Of a DNA stretch of 64,000 bases, positions 11,179-61,217 are shown in pieces. Position 1 is the stretch's first letter, and each line of letters begins with the position of its first letter. Made by a program: the position numbers and the translations under genes. The stretch is taken from IMG/VR virus record IMGVR_UViG_3300027901_000001; one strand, written 5' to 3'. The notes under the pieces were generated by a model. That model saw only the letters and a program-made list of their open reading frames with translations, ran no database searches and had not been told where the DNA came from. Source of the stretch: a virus.

Positions 11179-11452
11179 CGGATTCCCTTTCCCGCACCCA
11201 AATAACCGGACACCGCGACCACGGAGGCTTACGTGGCGTGGGCATCTGAATAATTATCCTGACTTTCTTCCACAGCTCCGGCTCCTCCAGCTTCTTCACG
11301 GCTTCGCCTATCGTCATGCCCTTGATGGCCGCCTTGACCATATCCACCAGCTCGTAGTTGTCACAAAGCGAGTCCGGGCCGATGAGATAATCCGTAACAT
11401 CCATCAGGTCTTTTGGAATGCGATAGCCCACGCTATTCCTCTCGGCTGCCAA
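11171..11452 (-). CDS. Hypothetical protein (start uncertain)
   Basis: 93-aa ORF filling the gap. Confidence 0.5.
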   Translation of the reverse strand: MAAERNSVGYRIPKDLMDVTDYLIGPDSLCDNYELVDMVKAAIKGMTIGEAVKKLEEPELWKKVRIIIQMPTPRKPPWSRCPVIWVRERESDE

Positions 11453-12215
11453 AGCCCCACACCTTCTGCTTGGGGAAATCGGTCTTACGGCCCCGCAGCT
11501 TCTTCAGCTTGATGTGCCAGCACCAGGGATTCGTGTTCCAGGCGTAGCCCTCGTTGTAGTACGACCCATCCCAACCCGAGGCAAAGTGAGCACGGAACAG
11601 GTCGTCCTCAGTCCACTCTGGAAGGCGACGCCCCACGTAGGCAGTCGGGGGGTGCGCGCCGGTGAGCCGGATCATCGGCCTGAACCGGCCCTTCTCCCTC
11701 GCACCCATGACCCGGATACCGTCCAGCTTGATTTCCTCCAGGGTAATAGTCTGGAGCCGCCGTACCTCGATGACCTCGATCCGGAAGAGGATGCGCGAGG
11801 CCCAGCGCGGCATGTGGATGGACGGCCGCCAGGGACCGTTCACATACTCCACCTCTTGGTCCGCCCGGTATATTATCTCGTAGCCATCAGGACACTTCTT
11901 CGGAATTGGCTCCTTCCACAAATCCTCCCACTCCTCTCTAAGCCTGAGATTCCACGCCTCGCGCACGTACAGCCGGTCGCCAGGCACCCCGTGGGGACAG
12001 CGAACGACGCCTCCATCAAGGCAAGGGTAAGACGGCCCTCGGAACAAGCGGGCGGTCCCCGGCCCGTCCCGGCCTGGACACGCCACGTACTGGGTGTACG
12101 GGGGCGGCGGCTGCGGCCGGATCGGCCGCCACGTCGCCTTCTTGAGGCCCAGCAACGCGGCCCGCACCAGCTCGTCCCGAAGGAGAAGCTGGCGCTCTTT
12201 CACCTGATGTTTCAC
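11433..12215 (-). CDS. ASCH/PUA-like phage protein, paralogue 1
   Basis: KERQLLL..LLGLKKATWR, PGDRLYVREAW, WRPSIHMPRWASRI, RRLQTIT, NPWCW. Confidence 0.8.
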   Translation of the reverse strand: MKHQVKERQLLLRDELVRAALLGLKKATWRPIRPQPPPPYTQYVACPGRDGPGTARLFRGPSYPCLDGGVVRCPHGVPGDRLYVREAWNLRLREEWEDLWKEPIPKKCPDGYEIIYRADQEVEYVNGPWRPSIHMPRWASRILFRIEVIEVRRLQTITLEEIKLDGIRVMGAREKGRFRPMIRLTGAHPPTAYVGRRLPEWTEDDLFRAHFASGWDGSYYNEGYAWNTNPWCWHIKLKKLRGRKTDFPKQKVWGFGSREE

Positions 12216-12223
12216 GTGAAACG
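12208..12223. promoter_or_regulatory. parS-like site (15/16 to consensus)
   Basis: TGTTTCACGTGAAACG versus the bacterial parS consensus TGTTTCACGTGAAACA; lies at a gene junction. Confidence 0.8.
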
Positions 12224-12224
12224 T

Positions 12225-12626
12225 CTACTTGGAGCTGGCCGCTGCGTCGCTGATGAGCTTGGCCGCCTTGTCCCTCAGCGCGCCGTCCCGCGAGAGCTTC
12301 CCTTCCAAGATGACCGTTAGAGTGCCCTTATCACCGAGATTGAGCGACATTTCCTCATGCTGCCCATTCACCATCGCGACAGGGGGCTTCTGCTGCGGCT
12401 TCTTGGGAGGCATCGTCCGTGGACGCTCTCTGAAGCCCAGGCCCAGCTCCCCTAATCGCTTCTCGACACCAGCCTTGGAGCGGCCAGCATTGAACTTCTT
12501 GTTGAACAGCCGCCTGATAGCAGCAACACGGAGACCCTTGTTGTGCAGCTTTTTAAGGTGCTCATCTTCGGCTTTGCGCCATCCATAGCGGCGCTTTTTC
12601 TTGCCGTTCGTCTTCTTCGTCGCCAT
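12225..12626 (-). CDS. Basic DNA-binding-type protein (Myb/HTH-like N-terminus; start MATKK)
   Basis: WRKAEDEHLKKLHNKGLRVAAIRR...RSKAGVEKRL. Confidence 0.55.
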   Translation of the reverse strand: MATKKTNGKKKRRYGWRKAEDEHLKKLHNKGLRVAAIRRLFNKKFNAGRSKAGVEKRLGELGLGFRERPRTMPPKKPQQKPPVAMVNGQHEEMSLNLGDKGTLTVILEGKLSRDGALRDKAAKLISDAAASSK

Positions 12627-17230: not shown

Positions 17231-17740
17231 CTACTTCTTATTTTTTTTGGGAGGAGGGAGCTTGCCGATTTGCCTGATGTAGCTGTCTCCAAGAGTACGG
17301 CTGGCCTTATCGAGCTGGCGCACTCGTTCCCGGAGAGCCGGATCCTTAATCTTGTCCAGGTCGATGAGACGCCGAATCTTATCAAACCCTTTTCTGGAGC
17401 CAACGATCCGGCGCACCTTAGCCTCCAGGGCCACGGCTGCGAGATCGTCCTGACTAAAAGTGGCCCGATAACCCACCGTCCGGAGAGGAACGAGGGCCTG
17501 CCCATACTTCAAGTTCAGAACATCCCCAACCCGCTGCATCTTTTTTGCAAAGAGTTTTACAAGCTCGGACTCTTCGCGGGGCAACCTCGACAGGATATGA
17601 GCTGCCCGCACGATGTAGCGAAGTGAGACGTACCTTCCAGGATACTTCTTCGCGCACCAGTGGAGAAAGTCCGCTGCCCTCTCCGTCTCGCTCATTTTTT
17701 TAGGATTAGAATATCCGTTGAATTCATCCTTCACTGGCAT
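17231..17740 (-). CDS. Hypothetical basic protein
   Basis: 169-aa ORF. Confidence 0.7.
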   Translation of the reverse strand: MPVKDEFNGYSNPKKMSETERAADFLHWCAKKYPGRYVSLRYIVRAAHILSRLPREESELVKLFAKKMQRVGDVLNLKYGQALVPLRTVGYRATFSQDDLAAVALEAKVRRIVGSRKGFDKIRRLIDLDKIKDPALRERVRQLDKASRTLGDSYIRQIGKLPPPKKNKK

Positions 17741-18671
17741 AATCGGCTCCTTTCTCCTTCCACTGCTGCCTAGCGGCCAGAGAACGATCCTCCAACCGCC
17801 TCACCTTCAGATACGCTAACAAAACCACACGCGCCTTGTTCACGCGGTCAAACTCTTCTTTTGCAGCCTCCGTAGGATTCCTATCCGGATGCAGCTCCGC
17901 CGCCCGCTTATTAGCTTTCCTCACCACAAACCTCTCGTCCGGAGGCTTTTTGAATACAAACCTTATCCCCAAAACTTCACAGGCCCACCTGGCATCGGCA
18001 ACGGTAATCGCCAACGCCTCTTCCATGTCCGCCCGCCGCTTTCCCTCTCGAATCCCATTAATAAGATCACTGATACAAAAACCAAGACCAACCTTGAATC
18101 GCCGGACAACCTCGTCCTTCACACTCCCATTGATGGCGTAGCCCTCACAAATTCTTTCCACAAAACCTTCAGCATTTTCCATCACCTGCGCCTTGAATAA
18201 ACGTGCGTCCGCGTCACCCTTTTTTTCTTCCTTCGCGTCTTTTTTTGTCTCCTCTGGCGCTTCTACGACTTCTTCTGGACCCGTTTCTCCCCGTAAACAT
18301 TGACTAACAACAAGTTCTAACGCCTTGGCAGTAGAAATCTTTTCTTTCCGAGAAAGTGCCAATATCTTTTTCCGTAACGAAATTGCCTTTCTAAGCGTAA
18401 CGGTCCCCTCATCGACCAGTCTAAACAGAACCTCCCCCCACCCACCTGTATTCAACAATATAGACCTACTTTGATAATGCGAAACCTTCCCCCCGAGAGT
18501 TTTACAAAGCCAGTCCCTTTTATAGATCCGCTTTCCATTTTCTTTTCCGCCCAGCATCGACCATAGGCCGTACATCTTGCCCTCAGCCTTGGCCAATTCG
18601 CGCTGGGACATTGACCCTTGCCCCTGCTTATAGCTATCAATCAGCTTAGCCAACTTTTCCTGTGCCGTCAT
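17724..18671 (-). CDS. Protein with C-terminal J-domain (DnaJ-like)
   Basis: RKANKRAAELHPDRNPTEAAKEEFDRVNKARVVL with the HPD motif. Confidence 0.75.
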   Translation of the reverse strand: MTAQEKLAKLIDSYKQGQGSMSQRELAKAEGKMYGLWSMLGGKENGKRIYKRDWLCKTLGGKVSHYQSRSILLNTGGWGEVLFRLVDEGTVTLRKAISLRKKILALSRKEKISTAKALELVVSQCLRGETGPEEVVEAPEETKKDAKEEKKGDADARLFKAQVMENAEGFVERICEGYAINGSVKDEVVRRFKVGLGFCISDLINGIREGKRRADMEEALAITVADARWACEVLGIRFVFKKPPDERFVVRKANKRAAELHPDRNPTEAAKEEFDRVNKARVVLLAYLKVRRLEDRSLAARQQWKEKGADYASEG

Positions 18672-23785: not shown

Positions 23786-24748
23786 CTATGATTTCCCCTT
23801 CATCATGTTGTCGACGTACCACTGGGTGTAGTAGTCCGGCACCAGCTTCAGCCCGGTCTGGTCGATGACGTGATCCCGGCTCACCTGGTCAGGCATCTCG
23901 CGCTCCACCCACCACTTCAGATCGTCCTTCTTGTGGAAGGTCCACTTGGTCTTGGAGCCGCCCTTGCGCGGGTCGCCGATGGACACCACCCATCCGGAGC
24001 CCGCCTTGGCAATAAACCACATATGGGGCGCGGGCTTCTTCTTGACGGTGGACAGCTTCCCCGTATCTCCCCTGGCCTCCGAGAGCACCCGGTAGGCCCA
24101 AGTCGCCCCGGACTTCTTGCGCTCGATCTTCCCGTCGTCCTCCAGCTCGTCCAGCCCCCAGTGGATGTACTTGTAGTCACCGCCGGGGACAGCCGCCGGA
24201 TATCGCTTCTTGACCGCATTCAGAATCGCATCCCGCTTCTTCCATTTACCGCCGGAAAGCGCGTCCCGGATGGCCTGGAGCAGGTTGGTCTTGCCAACGG
24301 GCACGTCCTTCAGGCTGGCCTCGAACAGGTCGTCCAGGTCTCTACACCCAGAAAGCATTACCTCCCAATCCAGGCTCTCCATCACACCTTTGAACCGGGC
24401 CATGACCTTCGGCGGAACGTCCTTTTCCTGAATGCGCTTCCACTCCACGCCCAGCGTCGGATGGTACACGCTGTCCTTCTTCGGCTTACTGGGCTTCCTC
24501 CCCACGTGCGCGTCCACGCGGTAGCCCGTGGCGTTGCCGTTCTTCAACGTTCCGGTGCGGTAAAAATAAGCCTCATCTCCCAAGCCCAACCCTATCTTGT
24601 AAAACTCTCCGGCCCCAGCCGTCGGATCCTTGCCCGCCTCCCGTCCTGCTCGTTGCAGCGCCGCGTATCCACCACCGTAGGTCGCCGCTGGGTAACGCCG
24701 CCGGGCTTCGGTGGTCACGGCCTCCTGGAGCTGCTTGGATAGTGACAT
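23786..24748 (-). CDS. Leader-bearing three-domain protein with central winged-helix-like domain
   Basis: MSLSKQLQEAVTTEA; linkers DLDDLFEA and VLSEAR. Confidence 0.72.
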   Translation of the reverse strand: MSLSKQLQEAVTTEARRRYPAATYGGGYAALQRAGREAGKDPTAGAGEFYKIGLGLGDEAYFYRTGTLKNGNATGYRVDAHVGRKPSKPKKDSVYHPTLGVEWKRIQEKDVPPKVMARFKGVMESLDWEVMLSGCRDLDDLFEASLKDVPVGKTNLLQAIRDALSGGKWKKRDAILNAVKKRYPAAVPGGDYKYIHWGLDELEDDGKIERKKSGATWAYRVLSEARGDTGKLSTVKKKPAPHMWFIAKAGSGWVVSIGDPRKGGSKTKWTFHKKDDLKWWVEREMPDQVSRDHVIDQTGLKLVPDYYTQWYVDNMMKGKS

Positions 24749-30755: not shown

Positions 30756-31696
30756 CATCCACCCCCGGCCTGGTTCTTGTAGGGAAACGCCGGACACTCG
30801 TACTGCCCCTTTTCGGCAGTCCGAAGACGGCAGTCGTCTGCCGCCTCCAACGCCTGTTGGAGTCTGTTTTCGAGCTTTCCGTGGGCTACCGCTACTCTAT
30901 CGAAAGCCGTGTTTACCGTGAACAACTCGGCCCGCGCCTGCTCCAGCTCGATTTCGAGCCGCTCGACCTTCCTGTCCTTGGACCGTAGCTCGACCGCCTC
31001 GTCAAAGCTCCAGTCGGCGATCAGCTCGCGCAGTTCCTCCAGTTCCTCATGGGTGGTAGTGAGCTGGTCGCCTTCGACCCTTACGTGCTCGTGCCACCAG
31101 GCCCGGATGGCCTCCCGCTTGTCAAACTCGGCATGGTAGGCCCGCTCCATCTTGTCGCGTTCCTGCGTCACCGCATCCATCGTCTGCTGCGAATAACCGG
31201 TCCCAGCATCGTCCAGTTTCTTCAATCGCGCTAGAGCCTCTTCTCGTTCCAGCTCCGCCTGCCGCGCCAGGTCGTTCTGCTGGGCCAGCACCTTGGCGTT
31301 GGCGGCGAGATCCGCCCGCGCCTTTTCAAGATCACGCCTGGGCTTACAGTGAAGATGCCCATCATTATCGCAAATCGCATCCTTACAACGAGCGCACATC
31401 TCCGTATTGAAGGCCCGCGCTTCCTTGAACAGGCGCAGTATCCGCTCCAGCTCCCTTTCCAGAGGGTAGGGGGCGCTATCATCGTCCGGCCGCCGCCTAA
31501 AGCTCAACACCGACAGCGCCTTGTCGAGCTGCTCCGGCAGGCTCATCCAGACGCCCAGCGTCGCCATCATCCGGTAGACGGTGTTCTGCGGCAGCGGCCC
31601 TTGCAGCTCCGCCTTCAGCAGGTCCTCGACCTCCTCCGGGGTCATCGGCCCTCGCGGATCACCTATCATCACCACCTTCTTTCCCACCCAAAACAA
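30755..31696 (-). CDS. Coiled-coil hypothetical protein
   Basis: 313 aa, heptad-rich, CARC..C..H..C. Confidence 0.7.
   Translation of the reverse strand: MFWVGKKVVMIGDPRGPMTPEEVEDLLKAELQGPLPQNTVYRMMATLGVWMSLPEQLDKALSVLSFRRRPDDDSAPYPLERELERILRLFKEARAFNTEMCARCKDAICDNDGHLHCKPRRDLEKARADLAANAKVLAQQNDLARQAELEREEALARLKKLDDAGTGYSQQTMDAVTQERDKMERAYHAEFDKREAIRAWWHEHVRVEGDQLTTTHEELEELRELIADWSFDEAVELRSKDRKVERLEIELEQARAELFTVNTAFDRVAVAHGKLENRLQQALEAADDCRLRTAEKGQYECPAFPYKNQAGGG
30829..30842. repeat. Near-copy of the palindrome (1 mismatch)
   Basis: GGCAGTCGTCTGCC. Confidence 0.7.
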
Positions 31697-34481: not shown

Positions 34482-35382
34482 CTGTCCCCTTCATCCTGCC
34501 GCTCAGCAGCCACCAGTTCATCGAGTTTGTCATCCCCTTGCAAGGCAGTCGACTGCCCCTGCTCGAAATCCACCTGGTCGGCCTCCAGGGCGAATGTCAG
34601 CTCCCGGACCCGGCCCTCCAGGACCTTGATATAGTCGGCGGCGATGTGGCCGTGGGGGTCCTCCGATACATCGTAATCGGCCTTCAGGTCGCGCAGCTCC
34701 TGGTCGGTAGGAAACGGCATCGCGCCCCGGACCGCCGCGTCCCATATCTTGACCGGTACGTGGAACGTGTAAAAGCGAGCACAGCCGGACCGATGCTCCG
34801 CCACTCGCAATAGCCCGGTATTGGGTTCCTCCAAAACAAAAATGACCTCGTATTGCCTGTCGCCGATTCTCAGCTTGTCACCCAACGTGGCCATTACTTC
34901 TCCAACTCTTTCAATATTCGTTCCTGGGCCTCCCGAACAGCCGTGGCCGCTTCCGTTTCCGTCAGCTTCAACGCTGCTATCTCCTTTACCGCGTCCAATG
35001 AACGAGAGACGTGTTTCTCCAGCGCCTTCTGAAAAGCCCCGGCCCTGAATGCCAGCTCGCGTACCCGGCCTTCCAGCGCCTGAACATACTTTTCCGAGTC
35101 TTCCCGTGCGAACGAGAGATTGTCGCTGGAATTCCAGGTGTGAGCCTCAAACTCGCCCTTCAGCTTCGCCAGCTTCTCAATCGAAATTTCGGCAGGAAAA
35201 GGAGCCGCTCCCTGGACCGCTGCGTCCCACAGCTCGACCGGTACCAGGAATTGATGGTCCTCGGGAGTCTTCACCGTGACGAACCGGTCCTCCCCGGTAT
35301 CGAAATCACCAAGGGAGACCACCTCGAACCGCCTGCCGTTGATCGTTACACTGTCCCCTCGTTTGACCATCGCCCACCTCAA
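34478..35382 (-). CDS. Two related hypothetical proteins (34478..34894, 34894..35382)
   Basis: Both contain PVxxWDAAVxGAxPFP and YxxxLEGRVRELxF. Confidence 0.7.
34544..34557. repeat. Dispersed palindrome copy 5
   Basis: Exact (GQSTA). Confidence 0.95.
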
Positions 35383-43433: not shown

Positions 43434-43802
43434 CTACACCTCCTGGTTTTTCATTTTCGCCATCGACAGCTCATCTTCAGCCGCCTTGATGATCTGGAAC
43501 ACATGGCCCGGCAGCGGCTTCTCCACCAGGCTGACCTCGATAACCCGAAAATCCATCTCCATCTTCCACAGGCCCCTGCTCTTGGGTTCCGACACCACCA
43601 CCGCCGTAACATCTGGCCCCGTCGCCCAGTCCATGCCAAGGCAGTCGACTGCCTTTTGGCGCGCCGCGCCCATGTCCCAGTACCGCTTCGGCCCAAACAG
43701 CCGCCGGGCTATCGCCTCCACGAACCACGGGGTTACGAGCCCGGCCGCCAGCAGCGGGGCCGACCTCCCTAAAAATTCACGCCTGGTCATCGGAGTAGGC
43801 AT
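43434..43802 (-). CDS. Small protein with twin-arginine signal-like N-terminus (copy 1)
   Basis: MTRREFLGRSAPLLAAGLV. Confidence 0.7.
   Translation of the reverse strand: MPTPMTRREFLGRSAPLLAAGLVTPWFVEAIARRLFGPKRYWDMGAARQKAVDCLGMDWATGPDVTAVVVSEPKSRGLWKMEMDFRVIEVSLVEKPLPGHVFQIIKAAEDELSMAKMKNQEV
43638..43655. repeat. Dispersed palindrome copy 6 (extends to 18 bp)
   Basis: AAGGCAGTCGACTGCCTT. Confidence 0.95.
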
Positions 43803-44724: not shown

Positions 44725-47127
44725 GGCCCAGATCGCGCATCACCTCTTGCGCCGCCAGCTCCTCATCCAACTCCCCCATCGCCATTTCTTCGTCGAGGCA
44801 GAGCTGCGCCGCGTCGCCCTTCGGAGAGGCTGTTTCCCTCCTCTCGAAGTCCTCCAGGGTGAGCACCTTTCGAGGCCGCCCTCTCCTACCTTTCTTCCTT
44901 ACCGCCACCTTCTGCTTCCTCCGTAGGGGGTATCGTACCATCCAGGGGAAGGGTTATCACCTTGGGATAGAAATACTTGAGATGCTCGGGGGCCACCTGG
45001 AAGGTACAATTCACGAGCCCCTGCTTCCTGGTGGGTTTGACCACCACATCCTTGAGCGTGACCTTTATACCGTCCGGCATCTCACACTCGATGTCCGGCA
45101 CCCGGATTCCCTTTGGCTGCCCAAGCAACCGCTCCAGGTACGTGTTGGGCACTCCAAATTCCTGCTCCCGTGGAAAAAGACGCTCAGATATGGCGTCTTT
45201 CATGCCGAGATTCCGTCCCATATCGAAAATCTTGCGAGGCATAAGACCCTCACTTCCGCAAAAACTTCCCGATCTCTCCGCTCATCTCCCGCGCCCGCGC
45301 CACATCACGATCATGGTACTCCTTCTGGATTGGCGTGCGCGTGTCAAGGCCCTCTGGCGTCGGGCAGGAACCCTCCCAGTCCGCTAATGCCGCCTTGAGA
45401 ATCTTCAAGTCATCCTTCGAGACGGCCAGCAGGTACTGTCCGGGCGCAACGATCATCGGTCGCACTCCTTTGGTACAAAACTGCCGGGCTGAAGCCGGAA
45501 CACAATGTACTCCAGCGGCTTCGGAAATCTGGTCTTGAGATTTAATTCCTTAATATCCGGCCCTGCCTTTCTGAGCATCTCCAGGATGAACCATTCGGTG
45601 GCCAGGGCGACACATCCTGGATCGTTATGCACGAACACCGCCTCGGTCTTGTGCTTGCCGTCCAGAGTTTCGGCTTGTATTTCGGCCCACCGTTTTTTTT
45701 CCAAATCAAAAGGACACAGCCTTCCAAGATCGGTGGCCTGGAACGGTTCGACCTGCCGACAGCCATGACAGCAACCCAACGTCACCCTCATCGACCACCT
45801 CCAGATGTTTCACGTGAAACATGGCCCAGCGCCACACTTGGCGGCTCAGTCCAATGCCACTCGTTCTCCCCGACCAGAACGCCTTCCGCCCAGGCCCCGC
45901 TCGCTGTAACAAACCGGCCGGTGATCGTTTCGTGCCCTGCCAGACGTATCTCACCGCCGGTCCTATTCCACTCTTTGCACCTTTCCTCGTACTTCTTCAG
46001 CGCCGCTTCGTATTCCTCATCGGTCATCTCCCGGACGTAGGTAGGGGTCTCGGCATCATCATCCCATTCCCAAATCTCCCGCGTGGGTCTTTCCGGCGGC
46101 GGACAACGATAATCGAGTGTTTCCCGATCCATCTCCACGCTCTCACACCTCACAAATGGTTCCCCGGTGACAGGATGAACGTCAGTTGGCCACTTATCCC
46201 CAAGCATCTCCCGCTGAGACATACGAGGAGGAGGTGGCGGCTTCGACGGCTCCGGCACCTTGACCACCGTTCCGTCCGGCCACCGGACCTTGTAGGCCCC
46301 GTCGTGGTCCTTGAACAGCTCGGGCTCGGCTGATTCTCTACTCTTTTTCGGCATTGACCCGCTCCGACTCCTCGCGCATCCGAACCAGAACGCGCCTCAT
46401 GGAAAAATAAAGGCTCTTCTCGGGCGCAAGGTGGCGCATGTACTGTTCGCCTTCCAACATCTTGCACAGCGTGTCCACCGTATCCCAGTTGGCCTGGACT
46501 TCTAAGGTTTTGATACCCGGCTCGTCCAGCTCAAACATATTCCGCCAGCCGTAGAGAAAACCGCCCTGCTGCGACGCCGCCTTGCACTTCCAGTCGTAGT
46601 GTGCCTGGGAGCACTCGATCATGTGGTCCAGTTCCGACCTCGTAATCTGAAGCCGGACCTCCACTTTGAACCTGAATCCCTTGATCTCAGGCATCCTTGA
46701 TCGCCTCCAGGAGGTCCTCCACAGGAAGGTCCGATGTAGGGATGTTCTCGGCCCGGCATTTACGCAGCACCCCGGCGACCGCCCAGCCCTTATCGGTGAG
46801 CTTGAGGATGGGGTACATCCCGGTCCCTTCCCAGAGAATGAGTCCCGCCTGCACCATATCCTCCACACAGTCCCAGTCATCGTGCTCGGTCAGCTCATCC
46901 CCACCGCGCAACCGAGTCGGATATCCCTTGTCATTACCAACAGTCGGCAGACGGTCCCTATCGATGTCGCCACGGAGCACACGCCCCGGCCAATGCCGCA
47001 TTCGGGCAGCAGAGGGAATGCCCTTGTGATCGGTACACACTGTCTCGATGTAGCTCAGCGTGGTCAGATGATCCTTGCCCCACAGCTCCGGGGGCACCGG
47101 CTTTCCGTTGTGTTTCCTGGTCGTCAT
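44699..47127 (-). CDS. Run of hypothetical genes (44886..45242, 45250..45465, 45453..45791, 45788..46354, 46338..46694, 46687..47127)
   Basis: Tiled ORFs. Confidence 0.6.
45805..45822. promoter_or_regulatory. parS site, perfect consensus
   Basis: A-TGTTTCACGTGAAACA-T, 16/16 to the widespread chromosomal parS consensus; encodes HVSRET in 45788..46354. Confidence 0.88.
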
Positions 47128-48978: not shown

Positions 48979-49457
48979 AGTGCCCTCCGGCGCATCTCGG
49001 GGTCAACTGGTCGGGTCAGGGCTTCCAGAGGCGTCAGACCCAGTTTCAGGCGCTTGTAGACGGTGCTACGACCGAGCCCGCGCCGCGCCGCGTGCTCCAA
49101 AAATGTGGCCACCATTCCATTCAGTTTCACCTGACCTCGCTCGCCCGCCCGCGCCCGCGTACGACATCGATCGCTGCAATACTGCCGTCCCGGAACCGCA
49201 GGTCGCCCGCACAAGCCGCACGGATGGGTACCTTGCCGTTCCAGTCGCCGGGTCACCGGACCGCCTTCCAAAACCTCCTGGAAAATCAAAATCTCGACAT
49301 CCAGCTCCGAGTCAGCCTCCAGACGCTCAATCGCCCGTCCACGGCATTCCGCACAGTAAATAGCCCCCGGCTCGGCCGTCTCGCCGCATCCCAAGATGGC
49401 ACATCGCACCGGCTGGAAATATCGGGCAGTCGACTGCCTCCGGCGCGCCCCTAGCAT
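48969..49457 (-). CDS. Zn-finger protein with C-terminal homing-endonuclease-type HTH
   Basis: CAILGC..YCAEC, CGLC..YCSDRC, LGRSTVYKRLKLGLTPLEALTRPV. Confidence 0.65.
   Translation of the reverse strand: MLGARRRQSTARYFQPVRCAILGCGETAEPGAIYCAECRGRAIERLEADSELDVEILIFQEVLEGGPVTRRLERQGTHPCGLCGRPAVPGRQYCSDRCRTRARAGERGQVKLNGMVATFLEHAARRGLGRSTVYKRLKLGLTPLEALTRPVDPEMRRRALCR
49425..49438. repeat. Dispersed palindrome copy 7
   Basis: Exact; about 20 bp downstream of the P8-driven ATG. Confidence 0.95.
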
Positions 49458-57050: not shown

Positions 57051-59087
57051 TCAAGTTATGCACCCGAAGTAACGACTCACCACTCTCGGACAAGGGGGCG
57101 CAGCACCCACTTCTTCCCCCTTATCCTGGGAATAAAAGTAGTCCGACACCCTAGCAGCGTAATCGATAATCCTGTTTTTGTGCCTCTCCAGAGCCCGAAC
57201 CTGCTCCCGAGTATAGGGCTTGTACTGATCGTGGGACCAATCGGCCGCCATATCCTGGCGGCGCGTGCGGATTTGGAGTTCCTTCACCTCACCGTCCTTG
57301 TCCACGATGTCCAGGTGGATGCTCCGATACTTCACCGCGCCCTGGGGATTACGCACCTTGTCATCAATGTTCTTGATCCTTATACCGTATCGCGCCCCCT
57401 TCCCTTTGATACTCTCAATAATATCATACACTTCTCCGATGGAACCGGCGATGATCCTGGTTCCGGTCACATCTCCCAGGGCACTCGCTGCCTTGTATTT
57501 GACGTTCTTTGCATCTGGCGGGGCGATCTTACCCAACATGCTATCGAGGTCCTTCAGCCGACCCGTTACCTTGTACCGGGGACCCGCCAGTCTTCCCAGG
57601 TCCCTCATAAATCCCTGCTGCCGCTTGGCGTGCTTGGCCCTCATCTCCTTCGCAGCCCGGATATGGTCACCAACGCCCAACGGCGCAATCAATCCCTGCT
57701 GCACATACCGCGCCATCCTCCGAATGGTACTAGCCAGCTCCTTCCTCTTCTTTGCCTGGGCCTCAGCATCTTCCACAACATCTTGAGCAAAGGTTCCCTT
57801 CACCTTCCGCCATTTACTCGGATCGGCGATTTTAACATGCACCCCCGTCTTGCGTTTACGCCGGGTGCCAATATCGTACTTGATTTCCTGCAAAATCCTG
57901 TCCAGCGGCGACAGCTCCCGTGACGCTCGAATACCCTTGGCCTCCGGCCATCTGGCCGCCAGCTTGCCCACGGTCACCTGGAGCCGAGCGGCCACATCCG
58001 AATCCAGGCGCTGCCCCAACAATTGCCCCGCGAAGGCCCGAGAAAAGCCCTCCTGCCCCTTTCCATTCCCCCAGGTCTCCCTGTCCCCCTTACCGAACTC
58101 CTGAAGCCACAGGCGTTCTGCGAGCGCCCTGAGCACGTTTTCGATGTTGGCCGAACCGGACCGCTGGGCATCGAAAATGAACAGGTCCGCCGTCGGGTCA
58201 TACTGAACAAAAGCAGTGCCTTTTACCTTGGCCGGATTCAGCTCCACCAGGCCGCCCGCCGCCGTCAACAGCCCCACACCGGTGAGCACCTTCGAGGCCC
58301 CCTCCAGCGCTCGCGTTACGTCCCGGACCTCGGAGCTGGTGTATCCCCACGTGTTCACGACCTCAAATCCAGCAGCCTTGAAAAATGGGTCTGCTTTACC
58401 CAAACCCTTAGCTGCCACCTTCCGAGCATCCCGAAGACCCCCGGCCAGCGCCCGCAACGCGGCCGACGCCTTCCTCGCCCCGGTGGGAGAGGTCCAAACA
58501 TTATGGGCAAGCCGCTTCAAAGTGGACCGGAGCTTACTCACCTCCGGCCGCTCACCCTCCAGGGCATCGGCGACGGGCTCTGCAAGCGCAGCCATCTGTT
58601 TGAGCTTCCAGGAAGCAGCCCCGGTAACCGACACCGCCACGGCCGTCTGCTCGATCTCCTTGGCGATAGCCTTGAGATAGGAGTCAGTCAGCGGGTCACT
58701 GCTGATCTTCGGAACGGCCTCTGTCAGATGCTCTTTCACCGTCACCGATCGTACCACCACCTGCGGGCCGGTCGGAGCATTTGTCGCCCTGGGCGGATCG
58801 TACCTCTTGAGCACCTTCACCGGCCACGCCCACAGCTCCCGGTCCTTTGGCCACCACTGCTGGCGCTGCTCATCGCTGATACGGTGCTCGCCCCGGCGAC
58901 GCTCAAACTGCTTAACGGTGAGCTTTTCCTGCTTGCCCAGCCGGACTGTACCGTACGCCTTCCGGCTACTGAGCAGCACGAACTCCTTGCCCGCGACATC
59001 AAAAGGCTTACTTTTGACGATGAGCTTCTTTTCGCCGTCGCGCACCATCTCCGCCATCGCGGTCGGCGAAAGGATGAGCCCCTCCAC
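57051..59087 (-). CDS. Multidomain protein: ASCH-like N-terminus, central domain, C-terminal RelA/SpoT (small alarmone synthetase-type) nucleotidyltransferase
   Basis: GRLKDLDSMLGK, GDVTGTRI, KYRSIH, ELQIRT, WSHDQYK. Confidence 0.88.
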   Translation of the reverse strand: MEGLILSPTAMAEMVRDGEKKLIVKSKPFDVAGKEFVLLSSRKAYGTVRLGKQEKLTVKQFERRRGEHRISDEQRQQWWPKDRELWAWPVKVLKRYDPPRATNAPTGPQVVVRSVTVKEHLTEAVPKISSDPLTDSYLKAIAKEIEQTAVAVSVTGAASWKLKQMAALAEPVADALEGERPEVSKLRSTLKRLAHNVWTSPTGARKASAALRALAGGLRDARKVAAKGLGKADPFFKAAGFEVVNTWGYTSSEVRDVTRALEGASKVLTGVGLLTAAGGLVELNPAKVKGTAFVQYDPTADLFIFDAQRSGSANIENVLRALAERLWLQEFGKGDRETWGNGKGQEGFSRAFAGQLLGQRLDSDVAARLQVTVGKLAARWPEAKGIRASRELSPLDRILQEIKYDIGTRRKRKTGVHVKIADPSKWRKVKGTFAQDVVEDAEAQAKKRKELASTIRRMARYVQQGLIAPLGVGDHIRAAKEMRAKHAKRQQGFMRDLGRLAGPRYKVTGRLKDLDSMLGKIAPPDAKNVKYKAASALGDVTGTRIIAGSIGEVYDIIESIKGKGARYGIRIKNIDDKVRNPQGAVKYRSIHLDIVDKDGEVKELQIRTRRQDMAADWSHDQYKPYTREQVRALERHKNRIIDYAARVSDYFYSQDKGEEVGAAPPCPRVVSRYFGCIT

Positions 59088-60186: not shown

Positions 60187-61217
60187 CAGGACCTCTCTTT
60201 CGGCTGCTGTACCACTTTACCACCGCCGATCCGCTCCCGGCCACCTTTCCCACGCTTGCGGCTCCGGATGACTGGACCGTCCACGTAGTTCTCGAACCGA
60301 GCCGGATCCGCCGGAGGCACGAACTGGGAAGCCGACGGGCTCGTACCGACGCCATGCGCAGAGCCGACAGGTACTCCCGTGTACGCCAAGCCAGGAGGAT
60401 AAGCGGGCGGCGTCTTGGGCGGCAAGACAATCTCGAATAGCGAATTAAACCGGCCACGCTCGCTGGCTTCCGACTTTCTGGCACCGTGTGGCATCGGAAT
60501 ACGGCCCTTGCAGAACTGGGCCAGAACAGCGTTGAGATTCCGCGTGGTGTGATCCGCCTCGAAAGACGACTTGGACCAGCCCACCTCCTCAGCGGCCTTA
60601 GCAACCCGCCGGAGCTTCGTGACCCACTGCAACCAAGCACGCCGCGCCCCGATCTCTCGCCGTTGAGGCTCAGGAACCCCCACCGCCCTTTCCAGCAGGT
60701 CATCCAACCGGAGGCAGCCACCTAGACATTCGGGCTCCGCAGCTTCATGGGTCTCCCAGGGAGGCTCACACTCTCCCTTCTTCATAATGGGCTTGCCATG
60801 CACCCCGCCACGCTGTTTCCCGTCAAACAGAATGTAGCACTCTTTCCCCGCTGGCTTCAGCTTCGCCATCCTAGCGCGAGCAGCCTTCTCATCGTCAAAT
60901 CCTTCCCCCAAAGGAATATCCTTCCCGGCCCAGGTCGTTCGGTGAATGATCTGGTATCGCTTCACCCCGGTTTTCACTCCGGGCGGCCGAAGGTACACCC
61001 GTCTCTCGCCCAACTCTGTCTCCTCAGCTTTCTTCTTGCCTGCCGCTATCACCTGCTGGGGCGTCATGCGCTCCTTGGATGTCACCCCGCACGCCCGCTT
61101 GAGCGTGCTCATGGCTATGGCGAAATGCTGGGTTCCCTTGGCCGTCTTGCCCCGGTAATACTCCCGCCGGATGTTCGCCTCAAAAGCATCCATCGAGCAT
61201 CTGCGGTCCAGCGGCAT
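60186..61217 (-). CDS. Multidomain hypothetical protein
   Basis: 343 aa; linkers ELGE and RLDDLLE. Confidence 0.7.
   Translation of the reverse strand: MPLDRRCSMDAFEANIRREYYRGKTAKGTQHFAIAMSTLKRACGVTSKERMTPQQVIAAGKKKAEETELGERRVYLRPPGVKTGVKRYQIIHRTTWAGKDIPLGEGFDDEKAARARMAKLKPAGKECYILFDGKQRGGVHGKPIMKKGECEPPWETHEAAEPECLGGCLRLDDLLERAVGVPEPQRREIGARRAWLQWVTKLRRVAKAAEEVGWSKSSFEADHTTRNLNAVLAQFCKGRIPMPHGARKSEASERGRFNSLFEIVLPPKTPPAYPPGLAYTGVPVGSAHGVGTSPSASQFVPPADPARFENYVDGPVIRSRKRGKGGRERIGGGKVVQQPKERS

Follow-up and report, generated by a model that had tools for sequence, protein, structure and literature searches.

Chromosomal-type parS sites dispersed along the genome of an uncultured T4-like phage are most likely read by host ParB

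The window, a 64,000-nucleotide stretch of the IMG/VR record IMGVR_UViG_3300027901_000001, carries a perfect 16-bp chromosomal-type parS site, TGTTTCACGTGAAACA, at positions 45806-45821 (genome 50277-50292; no strand assigned), which matches the chromosomal-type consensus TGTTNCACGTGAAACA at 16 of 16 positions. Addition of the flanking A and T yields a perfect 18-bp palindrome at 45805-45822, exactly as the original prediction had it. Its identification there as the conserved bacterial chromosomal parS also holds, since the 16-mer is identical to the consensus used across the ParB literature, where the string serves as such in 27 papers, and is preferred by 17 ParBs of diverse bacteria (bioRxiv 10.1101/724823). 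The site had further been placed inside the 3' end of a coding sequence. This is correct insofar as it falls within the final 11 codons of minus-strand gene g058 (45788-46354, hypothetical, 188 aa), where it is translated HVSRET and is contained in a 12-residue C-terminal tail, GHVSRETSGGGR. However, the only two detectable homologues of g058, P0122 (54% identity) and P0123 (45%), both stop before this parS-coded tail. Because the tail is thus a C-terminal extension missing in both, the site lies in effect at a gene junction, with 14 nt between its end and the ATG of the next gene, g059 (45453-45791, minus strand, hypothetical, 112 aa). Neither g058 nor the directly downstream g059 belongs to a Pfam or PHROG family.

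A scan of the whole phage genome, which had been proposed along with the original prediction, recovered five dispersed parS copies, each with an intact 14-bp core; three are perfect and two match at 15 of 16 positions. They are spread over ~115 kb, four at gene junctions and one within a Rep-like gene, and for four of the five a gene starts 0-73 nt downstream. The second copy in the window (12208..12223, genome 83875-83890, no strand assigned) is a 15/16 match in which the outermost base alone differs. It begins ~1-2 nt past the stop codon of g127 (12225..12626, minus strand), a hypothetical gene of 133 aa without a Pfam or PHROG family, and it shares bases with the first GTG that could serve as start of the downstream g128 (11433..12215, minus strand), whose 260-aa product belongs to phrog_874, a family of unknown function (E value of 8e-40). 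Around the sites, Pfam and PHROG scans returned nothing informative for g056-g061, g127, g221, g256, and g257. A 14/16 match, TGTTTCCCGTCAAACA, is found within a 343-aa gene (window 60814..60829, no strand assigned) and could represent a sixth parS, weak or decayed, or a chance occurrence; by our own arithmetic from pattern space, ~0.05 matches of this type (at most 2 mismatches) are expected genome-wide.

Chance is no explanation for the parS copies. In 191,623 bp, zero-order or third-order Markov models predict ~2e-5 perfect sites and 4e-4 sites with the 14-bp core, whereas the genome has 3 and 5, respectively, and shuffles of the window give 0.15 expected matches at up to 3 mismatches versus 3 observed. 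Besides a 20-copy GGCAGTCGACTGCC family, parS is the only recurring palindrome of 12 to 16 bp in the genome.

This genome, which is complete at 191,623 bp (~192 kb), belongs to an uncultured T4-like phage from marine sediment. It encodes a T4-like myovirus gene set, including the gp20 portal, the gp23 capsid protein, a gp21-type protease, sheath, and baseplate proteins, and the closest capsid protein of any cultured phage is at most 34% identical. Among genes for a temperate lifestyle, no tyrosine integrase was found in the genome, and the architecture is T4-like, so that the phage looks strictly lytic from its gene content. The suggestion that the parS site serves an extrachromosomal prophage is consequently not supported, given the T4-like myovirus structural genes and the lack of integrase and partition genes. 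Among sequencing runs, the stretch is present in one marine-sediment sample; a second marine-sediment run contains a small share of it, in which the parS region is uncovered. No RNA run is listed as containing the stretch, and searches of IMG/VR for related loci with the helicase alone, with g058, and with the g058 alignment returned no relatives.

We searched the phage genome for a protein that could read these sites. For canonical ParB, the HTH_ParB profile (PF17762) gave no match even at an E value of 10, the best TIGR00180 score was 16.9 bits (cut-off, 58.45) on a 107-aa Srx-like ORF, and PF02195 remained under the cut-off on two ORFs. For ParA, AAA_31 had no match in the genome and CbiA a single weak one, g251. 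The latter was rejected as a ParA, being a DnaC/IstB-like AAA+ loader that adjoins a DnaB-like helicase. A J-domain protein (window 17724-18671) was likewise set aside as a reader, with no ParB similarity by Pfam, by BLASTP against real ParB, or by phmmer against the PDB. Hence, the replicon carries neither a cognate canonical ParB with N-domain, HTH_ParB, and dimerization domain nor a P1/N15-type cassette of ParA ATPase and ParB adaptor. Because the phage lacks a canonical ParB and ParA, the most likely reader of the sites, judging from its gene content, is the ParB of the host.

The check for phage parA and parB genes was not entirely negative, as it brought up a divergent ParB-fold module fused to a methyltransferase. 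This protein, g245 (genome 155116-156348), is a ParB-HTH-MT-A70 methyltransferase fusion and the sole ParB-fold protein of the phage with a DNA-binding domain; its module could be a private reader, which counts against a role for host ParB. In that case, it could be an NTP-gated clamp that loads at parS and adds methyl groups to the phage DNA. The N-terminal 233 aa are predicted by AlphaFold (pLDDT, 93.7) to adopt the two-domain architecture of ParB, Spo0J, Noc, and KorB, comprising a ParB N-domain and an HTH fold, and Foldseek ranks Spo0J, ParB, Noc, and KorB highest for the model, over 190-230 columns. An alignment of the family profile with Caulobacter ParB extends through the DNA-binding domain, and the profile also matches PDB chains of ParB and Noc. 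Moreover, ParB-fold-methyltransferase fusions are typical of phages (PMC12704722), and two proviruses with the module share one parS-like word (14/16), located 0.5-0.9 kb ahead of the gene. However, the residues by which Caulobacter ParB contacts parS, G170, K171, S172, R173, and N178 (10.1101/724823), are not those of g245, which reads S-V-S-G at 170-173 and K at 178 in an alignment with Spo0J (1vz0) that is weak and indicative only, i.e., V, G, and K in place of K171, R173, and N178. In addition, no parS at up to 1 mismatch occurs in the 1.65 Mb of 30 viral records that likewise encode the module. Those records include the closest g245 homologue, 46% identical, whose complete 68.8-kb genome has no parS at up to 2 mismatches; its recognition helix, SGRTVQKAQKVI, is nearly identical to that of g245, SGRSISKAEKVI. 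The 20-copy GGCAGTCGACTGCC palindrome is also a likelier private site than parS, and we consider it very unlikely that g245, the most plausible phage candidate, reads the latter. In relative G003, which lacks parS, the g245 orthologue retains the methyltransferase and the N-terminal module differs. Several methyltransferases are encoded by the phage, and modification of its DNA could keep ParB off parS.

Comparison with relatives indicates how the sites are kept. The copy upstream of the SF2 helicase gene lies between a -10-like box (TAAAAT/TAGAAT), a covarying hairpin, and the ATG, which it abuts. The same layout is found in L102, a relative with a 72% identical helicase, where a perfect parS is located 3 nt before the helicase ATG. 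Between the two leaders, the flanks diverge and the upstream hairpin has compensatory substitutions, and the 16-mer is unchanged. Two further relatives of ~190 kb (helicase identity, 49%) have one 15/16 parS each, at a shared junction, whereas ~0.007 such matches would be expected in the 647 kb scanned. In the Rep-like gene, parS is missing from 16 of 16 homologues. Where homologues read VAKRV or VGKRA, this phage reads VSRET, and the replacement of four consecutive residues suggests that a parS was written into existing coding sequence. Since this copy is absent from all 16 homologues, sites have been gained as well as kept. The parS sequence is under selection, given its five copies and the retention of one of them at the same place in a relative.

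The same leader bears on whether the palindrome is meant for ParB in the first place. As RNA, the 16-mer could fold into a hairpin of 6 bp, and in front of the helicase gene it is preceded by a strong hairpin; palindromes and nicking or homing-type enzymes are abundant in the genome. The element might serve as a hairpin or terminator in RNA, be recognized by an unrelated enzyme of the phage, or stem from DNA acquired from the host. We regard all of this as extremely unlikely. An RNA structure would allow compensatory changes, as the neighboring hairpin does, but the 16-mer is letter-perfect, and a private 16-bp palindrome would equal parS in ~1 of 65,536 cases. Nor do the copies resemble captured host fragments, as they are isolated 16-mers in phage-specific sequence, one of them in the middle of a protein alignment that extends to either side of it.

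The position of the sites also invites a regulatory reading, in which ParB clamps, of the host or the phage, loaded at parS would block or silence the adjacent genes (helicase, Rep-like, g059, and g128) until titration by phage copies relieves them, a copy-number timer comparable to KorB-CTP on RK2. That four of the five sites lie so close to a gene start, and that the order of -10-like box, hairpin, parS, and ATG is conserved in L102, would fit such control. However, gene junctions are also where a 16-bp insertion is tolerated, one copy lies deep within a gene, a search around the two window copies revealed neither a sigma-70-type promoter nor a terminator, and the downstream genes have no common function; we hold gene control to be quite improbable. 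A specific form of it would make host ParB a copy-number sensor, with clamps at parS copies that directly adjoin gene starts repressing those genes on the first incoming genome and releasing them once replicated DNA titrates ParB. The arrangement of promoter, hairpin, parS, and ATG at the SF2 helicase gene would be its clearest case, and this proposal, too, is quite improbable. If true, the lytic phage would gain a replication-coupled timer made from a host segregation protein.

The MAGs into which related phages are binned provide a hint about the cell in which the sites would operate. A first scan of genome contigs for a host gave no match. A second one yielded only distant relatives, assigned to MAGs from several phyla, with the highest helicase identity (45%) in a Phycisphaerae MAG. 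The Phycisphaerae MAG that contains a binned 183-kb relative encodes a canonical ParB (179 bits), with the identical 16-mer 105 bp upstream of parB as its single perfect parS site. The bins of distant relatives, with helicase identities of 45% and 30%, are the sole basis for a weak hint of a host in the Planctomycetota. The host is probably Gram-negative and not spore-forming.

A single perfect site in the MAG of this candidate clade is relevant to the possibility that the phage sites are a sink, whereby replicating genomes with five sites each would soak up host ParB and strip it from the host origin, disturbing segregation, SMC loading, or division-site control. Multiple dispersed sites of high affinity, multiplied by many genome copies, would outnumber those of the host, the phage looks strictly lytic, and the site counts and the lack of phage ParB and ParA that favor host ParB as the reader apply here equally. 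On the other hand, one or two sites would already suffice to outnumber those of the host after replication, which leaves the dispersed layout unexplained, and nothing separates a sink from piggy-back inheritance. Furthermore, no parS is found in a 148-kb relative or in the 183-kb MAG contig, and this patchy presence in the clade suggests a dispensable function; it weighs against the use of host ParB for inheritance as well. Disturbance of the host as the purpose of the sites is, in our view, unlikely.

We lean, with moderate confidence, toward the view that host ParB-CTP loads onto the DNA of the phage, which would let it be inherited piggy-back or positioned, or would titrate ParB. From the sequences we infer host ParB binding, its spreading, and a benefit to the phage. 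After injection, the chromosomal ParB of the host would bind the five parS sites. There it would form a closed CTP clamp and spread on adjacent phage DNA, and the DNA so coated would join the partition complex of the host. In a stalled infection, e.g., in slow-growing or starved sediment cells, the non-integrating genome might in this way take its position from the host origin and be passed on along with it. This inheritance benefit is speculative, because to our knowledge no T4-like phage persists as an episome. Recruitment of SMC along with host ParB, and titration of ParB, both raised in the original prediction, would be further possible consequences.

If host ParB is indeed the reader, the use of host segregation machinery by lytic phages would not be peculiar to phi29 and sporulation but would extend to large T4-like phages whose hosts are environmental and probably Gram-negative. 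Since perfect parS occurs in at least 119 IMG/VR stretches, such exploitation of host ParB may be widespread. It would bear on the persistence of virulent phages in slowly dividing cells (pseudolysogeny) and on ParB as a target or tool during infection. It would also help host prediction, as an orphan parS points to a host that has ParB. Selection on such sites could be studied through the copy apparently written into coding sequence.

Among known systems, the sites on this phage would represent a variation of the phi29/Spo0J principle. Virulent phi29 relies on five parS sites and the Spo0J of its host (Meijer et al. 2005, as summarized in PMC2731898). Like phi29 and Nf, the present phage appears virulent, has no canonical ParB or ParA of its own, and carries several host-chromosome parS sites along its genome (five in phi29, five here), with host ParB as the presumed reader. 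Whereas the present phage is a 192-kb T4-like myovirus of marine sediment, phi29 infects a spore former and is a protein-primed podovirus of 19 kb, for which the benefit lies in entrapment in the spore together with Spo0A control. The 16-bp sequence is identical to that of chromosomal ParABS, with parS near oriC, ParB/Spo0J-CTP, ParA, and SMC loading; here, in contrast, it resides on a phage replicon without cognate parB or parA, and the sites extend over ~115 kb instead of clustering at an origin. P1 ParAB-parS and N15 SopAB, the latter with four dispersed centromere sites, rely on their own ParA/ParB, a lysogeny module, and private site sequences. Dispersed centromere copies on a phage genome are thus shared with N15, whereas the partition proteins, lysogeny module, and private sites of P1 and N15 are all absent from this phage. 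KorB of plasmid RK2 is a ParB-family CTP clamp and long-range repressor (PDB 8qa8/8qa9 title), which acts at its own site, OB. Its multiple dispersed palindromic sites, some of which coincide with promoters or with the starts of genes, recall those found here, although KorB is plasmid-encoded with a site sequence of its own and a regulatory role of parS in this phage is hypothetical.

The original prediction of a perfect host-type parS within an 18-bp palindrome at window positions 45805-45822 is borne out by the sequence with 0 mismatches: the 16-bp parS TGTTTCACGTGAAACA occupies positions 45806-45821, and the 18-bp palindrome is perfect once the flanking A and T are counted. Its identification as the conserved bacterial chromosomal parS consensus holds as well, the identical string being the consensus chromosomal parS of the ParB literature, including papers on CTP-dependent spreading and on ParB/Noc specificity. 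The site had been placed inside the 3' end of a hypothetical coding sequence, and it is indeed held by the final 11 codons of the open reading frame g058 (45788-46354, minus strand), in whose frame it is translated as H-V-S-R-E-T. However, this C-terminal tail is missing from both detectable homologues (54% and 45% identity), which end earlier, so that the site (genome position 50277) is effectively a gene junction; 14 nt separate the end of parS from the ATG of the next gene.

The window corresponds to bases 32098-96097, reverse strand, of a 191,623-bp IMG/VR virus record with a 94-bp direct terminal repeat and a completeness rating of 100%. G+C content is 58%, and 258 of the 287 gene calls, which are rough, fall on one strand. 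The phage is a T4-like myovirus, encoding a gp20-type portal, a gp23-type major capsid protein, a gp21-type prohead protease, a tail sheath and a baseplate wedge, with a capsid protein at most 34% identical to that of the nearest cultured phage. A search of the genome for a tyrosine integrase found none. Just one sequencing run, a metagenome from marine sediment and probably the source, contains the full stretch. The window also encodes, at 57051-59087 on the minus strand, a 678-aa protein whose residues 509-623 match a RelA/SpoT alarmone-synthetase domain (Pfam E 6e-13).

Scanning the whole genome, as proposed with the original prediction, revealed five parS copies with an intact 14-bp core. 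Besides the copy in the tail of g058, perfect sites are found at genome position 126798, inside the weak Rep_1/HUH-like gene g209, and at 165445, where parS directly adjoins the start codon (ATG) of an SF2/ResIII helicase. The two remaining copies match at 15/16 positions, each with its mismatch at the outermost base only: one, at 83875 (window 12208), starts 2 nt past the g127 stop codon, overlapping the earliest possible start of the downstream gene g128 (phrog_874), and the other, at 140581, lies just past an apparent tRNA 3' end (T-loop-like motif), 73 nt before g221. A 14/16 match is present at 35269 (window 60814). No sigma-70-type promoter or terminator consensus was found beside the two window copies. 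Under composition models, the expected numbers are about 2e-5 for perfect copies and 4e-4 for the 14-bp core.

Only two families of recurring 12- to 16-bp palindromes exist in the genome, parS with 5 copies and GGCAGTCGACTGCC with 20 (21 for its 12-bp core). Since a private 16-bp palindrome would coincide with parS with a chance of about 1 in 65,536, the five copies are treated, on sequence grounds, as true parS sites. Copies of GGCAGTCGACTGCC occur at window 43638-43651 (genome 52445) and 49424-49437 (genome 46660), at genome position 139908, which is 673 bp away from the 140581 parS, and at 126948, in g209 and 150 bp from the parS of that gene. Both palindrome types thus lie inside g209 (genome 126442-127437; L015:6442-7437 in a piece of the phage genome), whose Rep_1/HUH-like match, at 27 bits, is below the cut-off. 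Its product has conserved Cys clusters at both ends and 16 homologues, on large phage contigs.

The parS-adjacent helicase has many homologues, and one close relative was read at the DNA level, the 6.6-kb contig L102, in which gene order is the same, the helicase is 72% identical and a perfect parS stands 3 nt before its ATG. Upstream of the helicase, both phages carry a -10-like box (TAAAAT / TAGAAT) and, after it, a long hairpin (-48 and -46 kcal/mol; L017:15376-15460 in a piece of this phage's genome, and L102:3640-3730), whose arms differ by compensatory changes and whose loop contains a conserved C-run; parS and then the ATG come directly after. This region looks like a structured leader or attenuator. 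The parS 16-mer is identical in the two phages beside the diverging hairpin arms, and such sequence-level constraint next to structure-level constraint would be predicted for a protein-binding site. Many helicase homologues (P0002, P0007, P0020, P0022 and others) carry inserted intein or homing-endonuclease domains (PF14890, PF05203/PF05204, PF14528); the helicase of this phage is uninterrupted.

Among more distant relatives, two of about 190 kb with a 49% identical helicase, L103 (groundwater) and L105 (LNFM01000122.1), each carry a 15/16 parS directly 3' of an HD-domain gene, at a junction syntenic between them. At this locus (L103:652-1210; L105:1582-2136), the HD-domain gene resembles small alarmone hydrolases and is preceded by a DNA methyltransferase gene; in L103, parS is followed by a gene homologous (58% identity) to g056, and g056 is found here two genes upstream from the g058 parS. 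Scanning 647 kb of DNA from relatives gave 3 matches at ≤1 mismatch versus about 0.007 expected. A 148-kb relative (47% identity) has no parS at ≤2 mismatches, and no match at ≤1 mismatch was found in a 183-kb contig (45% identity) from the bin of a Phycisphaerae MAG. Within g209, parS encodes VSRET, at a place where 16/16 homologues, one of them at 70% identity, show V-[AG]-K-[RV]-[AV]; four consecutive residues have therefore been replaced so that the DNA spells parS. Because sites are retained at some places and newly made at others, the pattern suggests that what is selected is the presence of parS copies, rather than any single position.

A search for a phage parA/parB, also suggested originally, yielded no canonical ParB or ParA but did uncover a divergent ParB-family module. 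Across the phage genome, the HTH_ParB profile had no match even at E 10, TIGR00180 reached 16.9 bits (cut-off 58.45) on a 107-aa Srx-like ORF, ParB_N hit two ORFs, both below cut-off, and AAA_31 had no match. The one ParA candidate, from a single weak CbiA match, is a DnaC/IstB-like AAA+ protein adjoining a DnaB-like helicase, and the J-domain protein, considered as a ParB-like reader, shows no ParB similarity. The divergent module belongs to g245 (genome 155116-156348, outside the window; L017:5116-6348), in which a ParB N-domain and an HTH DNA-binding domain are fused to a C-terminal MT-A70 methyltransferase. Its first 233 residues fall into a very large family (24,075 representatives at E ≤1e-3), whose stand-alone members (about 260 aa) have no Pfam match. 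The family profile matches Noc, Spo0J and ParB chains, with Caulobacter ParB aligned through its DNA-binding domain, and the module's AlphaFold model (pLDDT 93.7) matches Spo0J, ParB, Noc and KorB over 190-230 columns. ParB fold-methyltransferase fusions are typical of phages and of unknown function (PMC12704722). In the parS-less relative G003, the g245 orthologue keeps the methyltransferase but carries a different N-terminal module.

That g245 itself reads parS appears improbable. Two proviruses do share one 14/16 parS-like word, TGTTTCACGTGAAGCG, located 0.5-0.9 kb upstream of a g245-type module gene (IMG/VR G040 31377-31392; G041 23888-23903), but the pair may be relatives and hence amount to a single observation. 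Three results point the other way: in the Spo0J alignment g245 has V, G and K in place of the DNA-contacting K171, R173 and N178 of canonical ParBs; 30 other viral records encoding the module (1.65 Mb) have no parS at ≤1 mismatch; and the closest module-bearing genome (complete, 68.8 kb; protein 46% identical, recognition helix nearly identical) has none at ≤2 mismatches. The 20-copy GGCAGTCGACTGCC is an obvious candidate for the DNA target of g245.

Having nucleated at parS, ParB forms a closed CTP clamp and spreads; its complexes recruit SMC and interact with ParA. Lin and Grossman reportedly found in 1998 that one parS is enough for Spo0J-dependent plasmid stabilization. Loading of host ParB on the phage sites is the most likely mechanism: beyond the existence of the sites and selection for them, we infer that host ParB would load through five entry sites scattered along about 115 kb of the genome's non-structural part, and we favor the reading that a stalled, non-integrated phage genome would thereby be positioned and inherited piggy-back in slow-growing sediment hosts. 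Alternatively, the sites may titrate ParB, or ParB may control the genes beside them; neither is mutually exclusive with piggy-back inheritance. As to the host, the only hint comes from two Planctomycetota MAGs whose bins include contigs of distant relatives (45% and 30% helicase identity). Large phages related to this clade are present in such bins as whole contigs, L249 (JAJDDX010000500.1, 183 kb) and L255 (JAJDET010000376.1, 157 kb), and their binning is either a host hint or contamination. One of the two MAGs, from Phycisphaerae, has a parB gene for a canonical ParB (179 bits), and its single perfect parS lies 105 bp upstream of that gene. The same word is thus the working centromere in a plausible host clade, which does not make Phycisphaerae the host.

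Orphan host-type parS sites in lytic phages are a principle already published for phi29 and Nf; virulent phi29 carries five parS and relies on Spo0J for entry of its DNA into the spore (PMC2731898). At least 119 IMG/VR stretches contain a perfect parS, and 22 larger records mostly have it in 1-3 clustered copies, occasionally in 4-6. What is new here is the type of phage (T4-like, 192 kb, from marine sediment), the genome-wide dispersal of the sites, the direct evidence that sites are both retained and created de novo, and the coexistence of parS with both a fusion of the ParB fold to a methyltransferase and another palindrome lattice.
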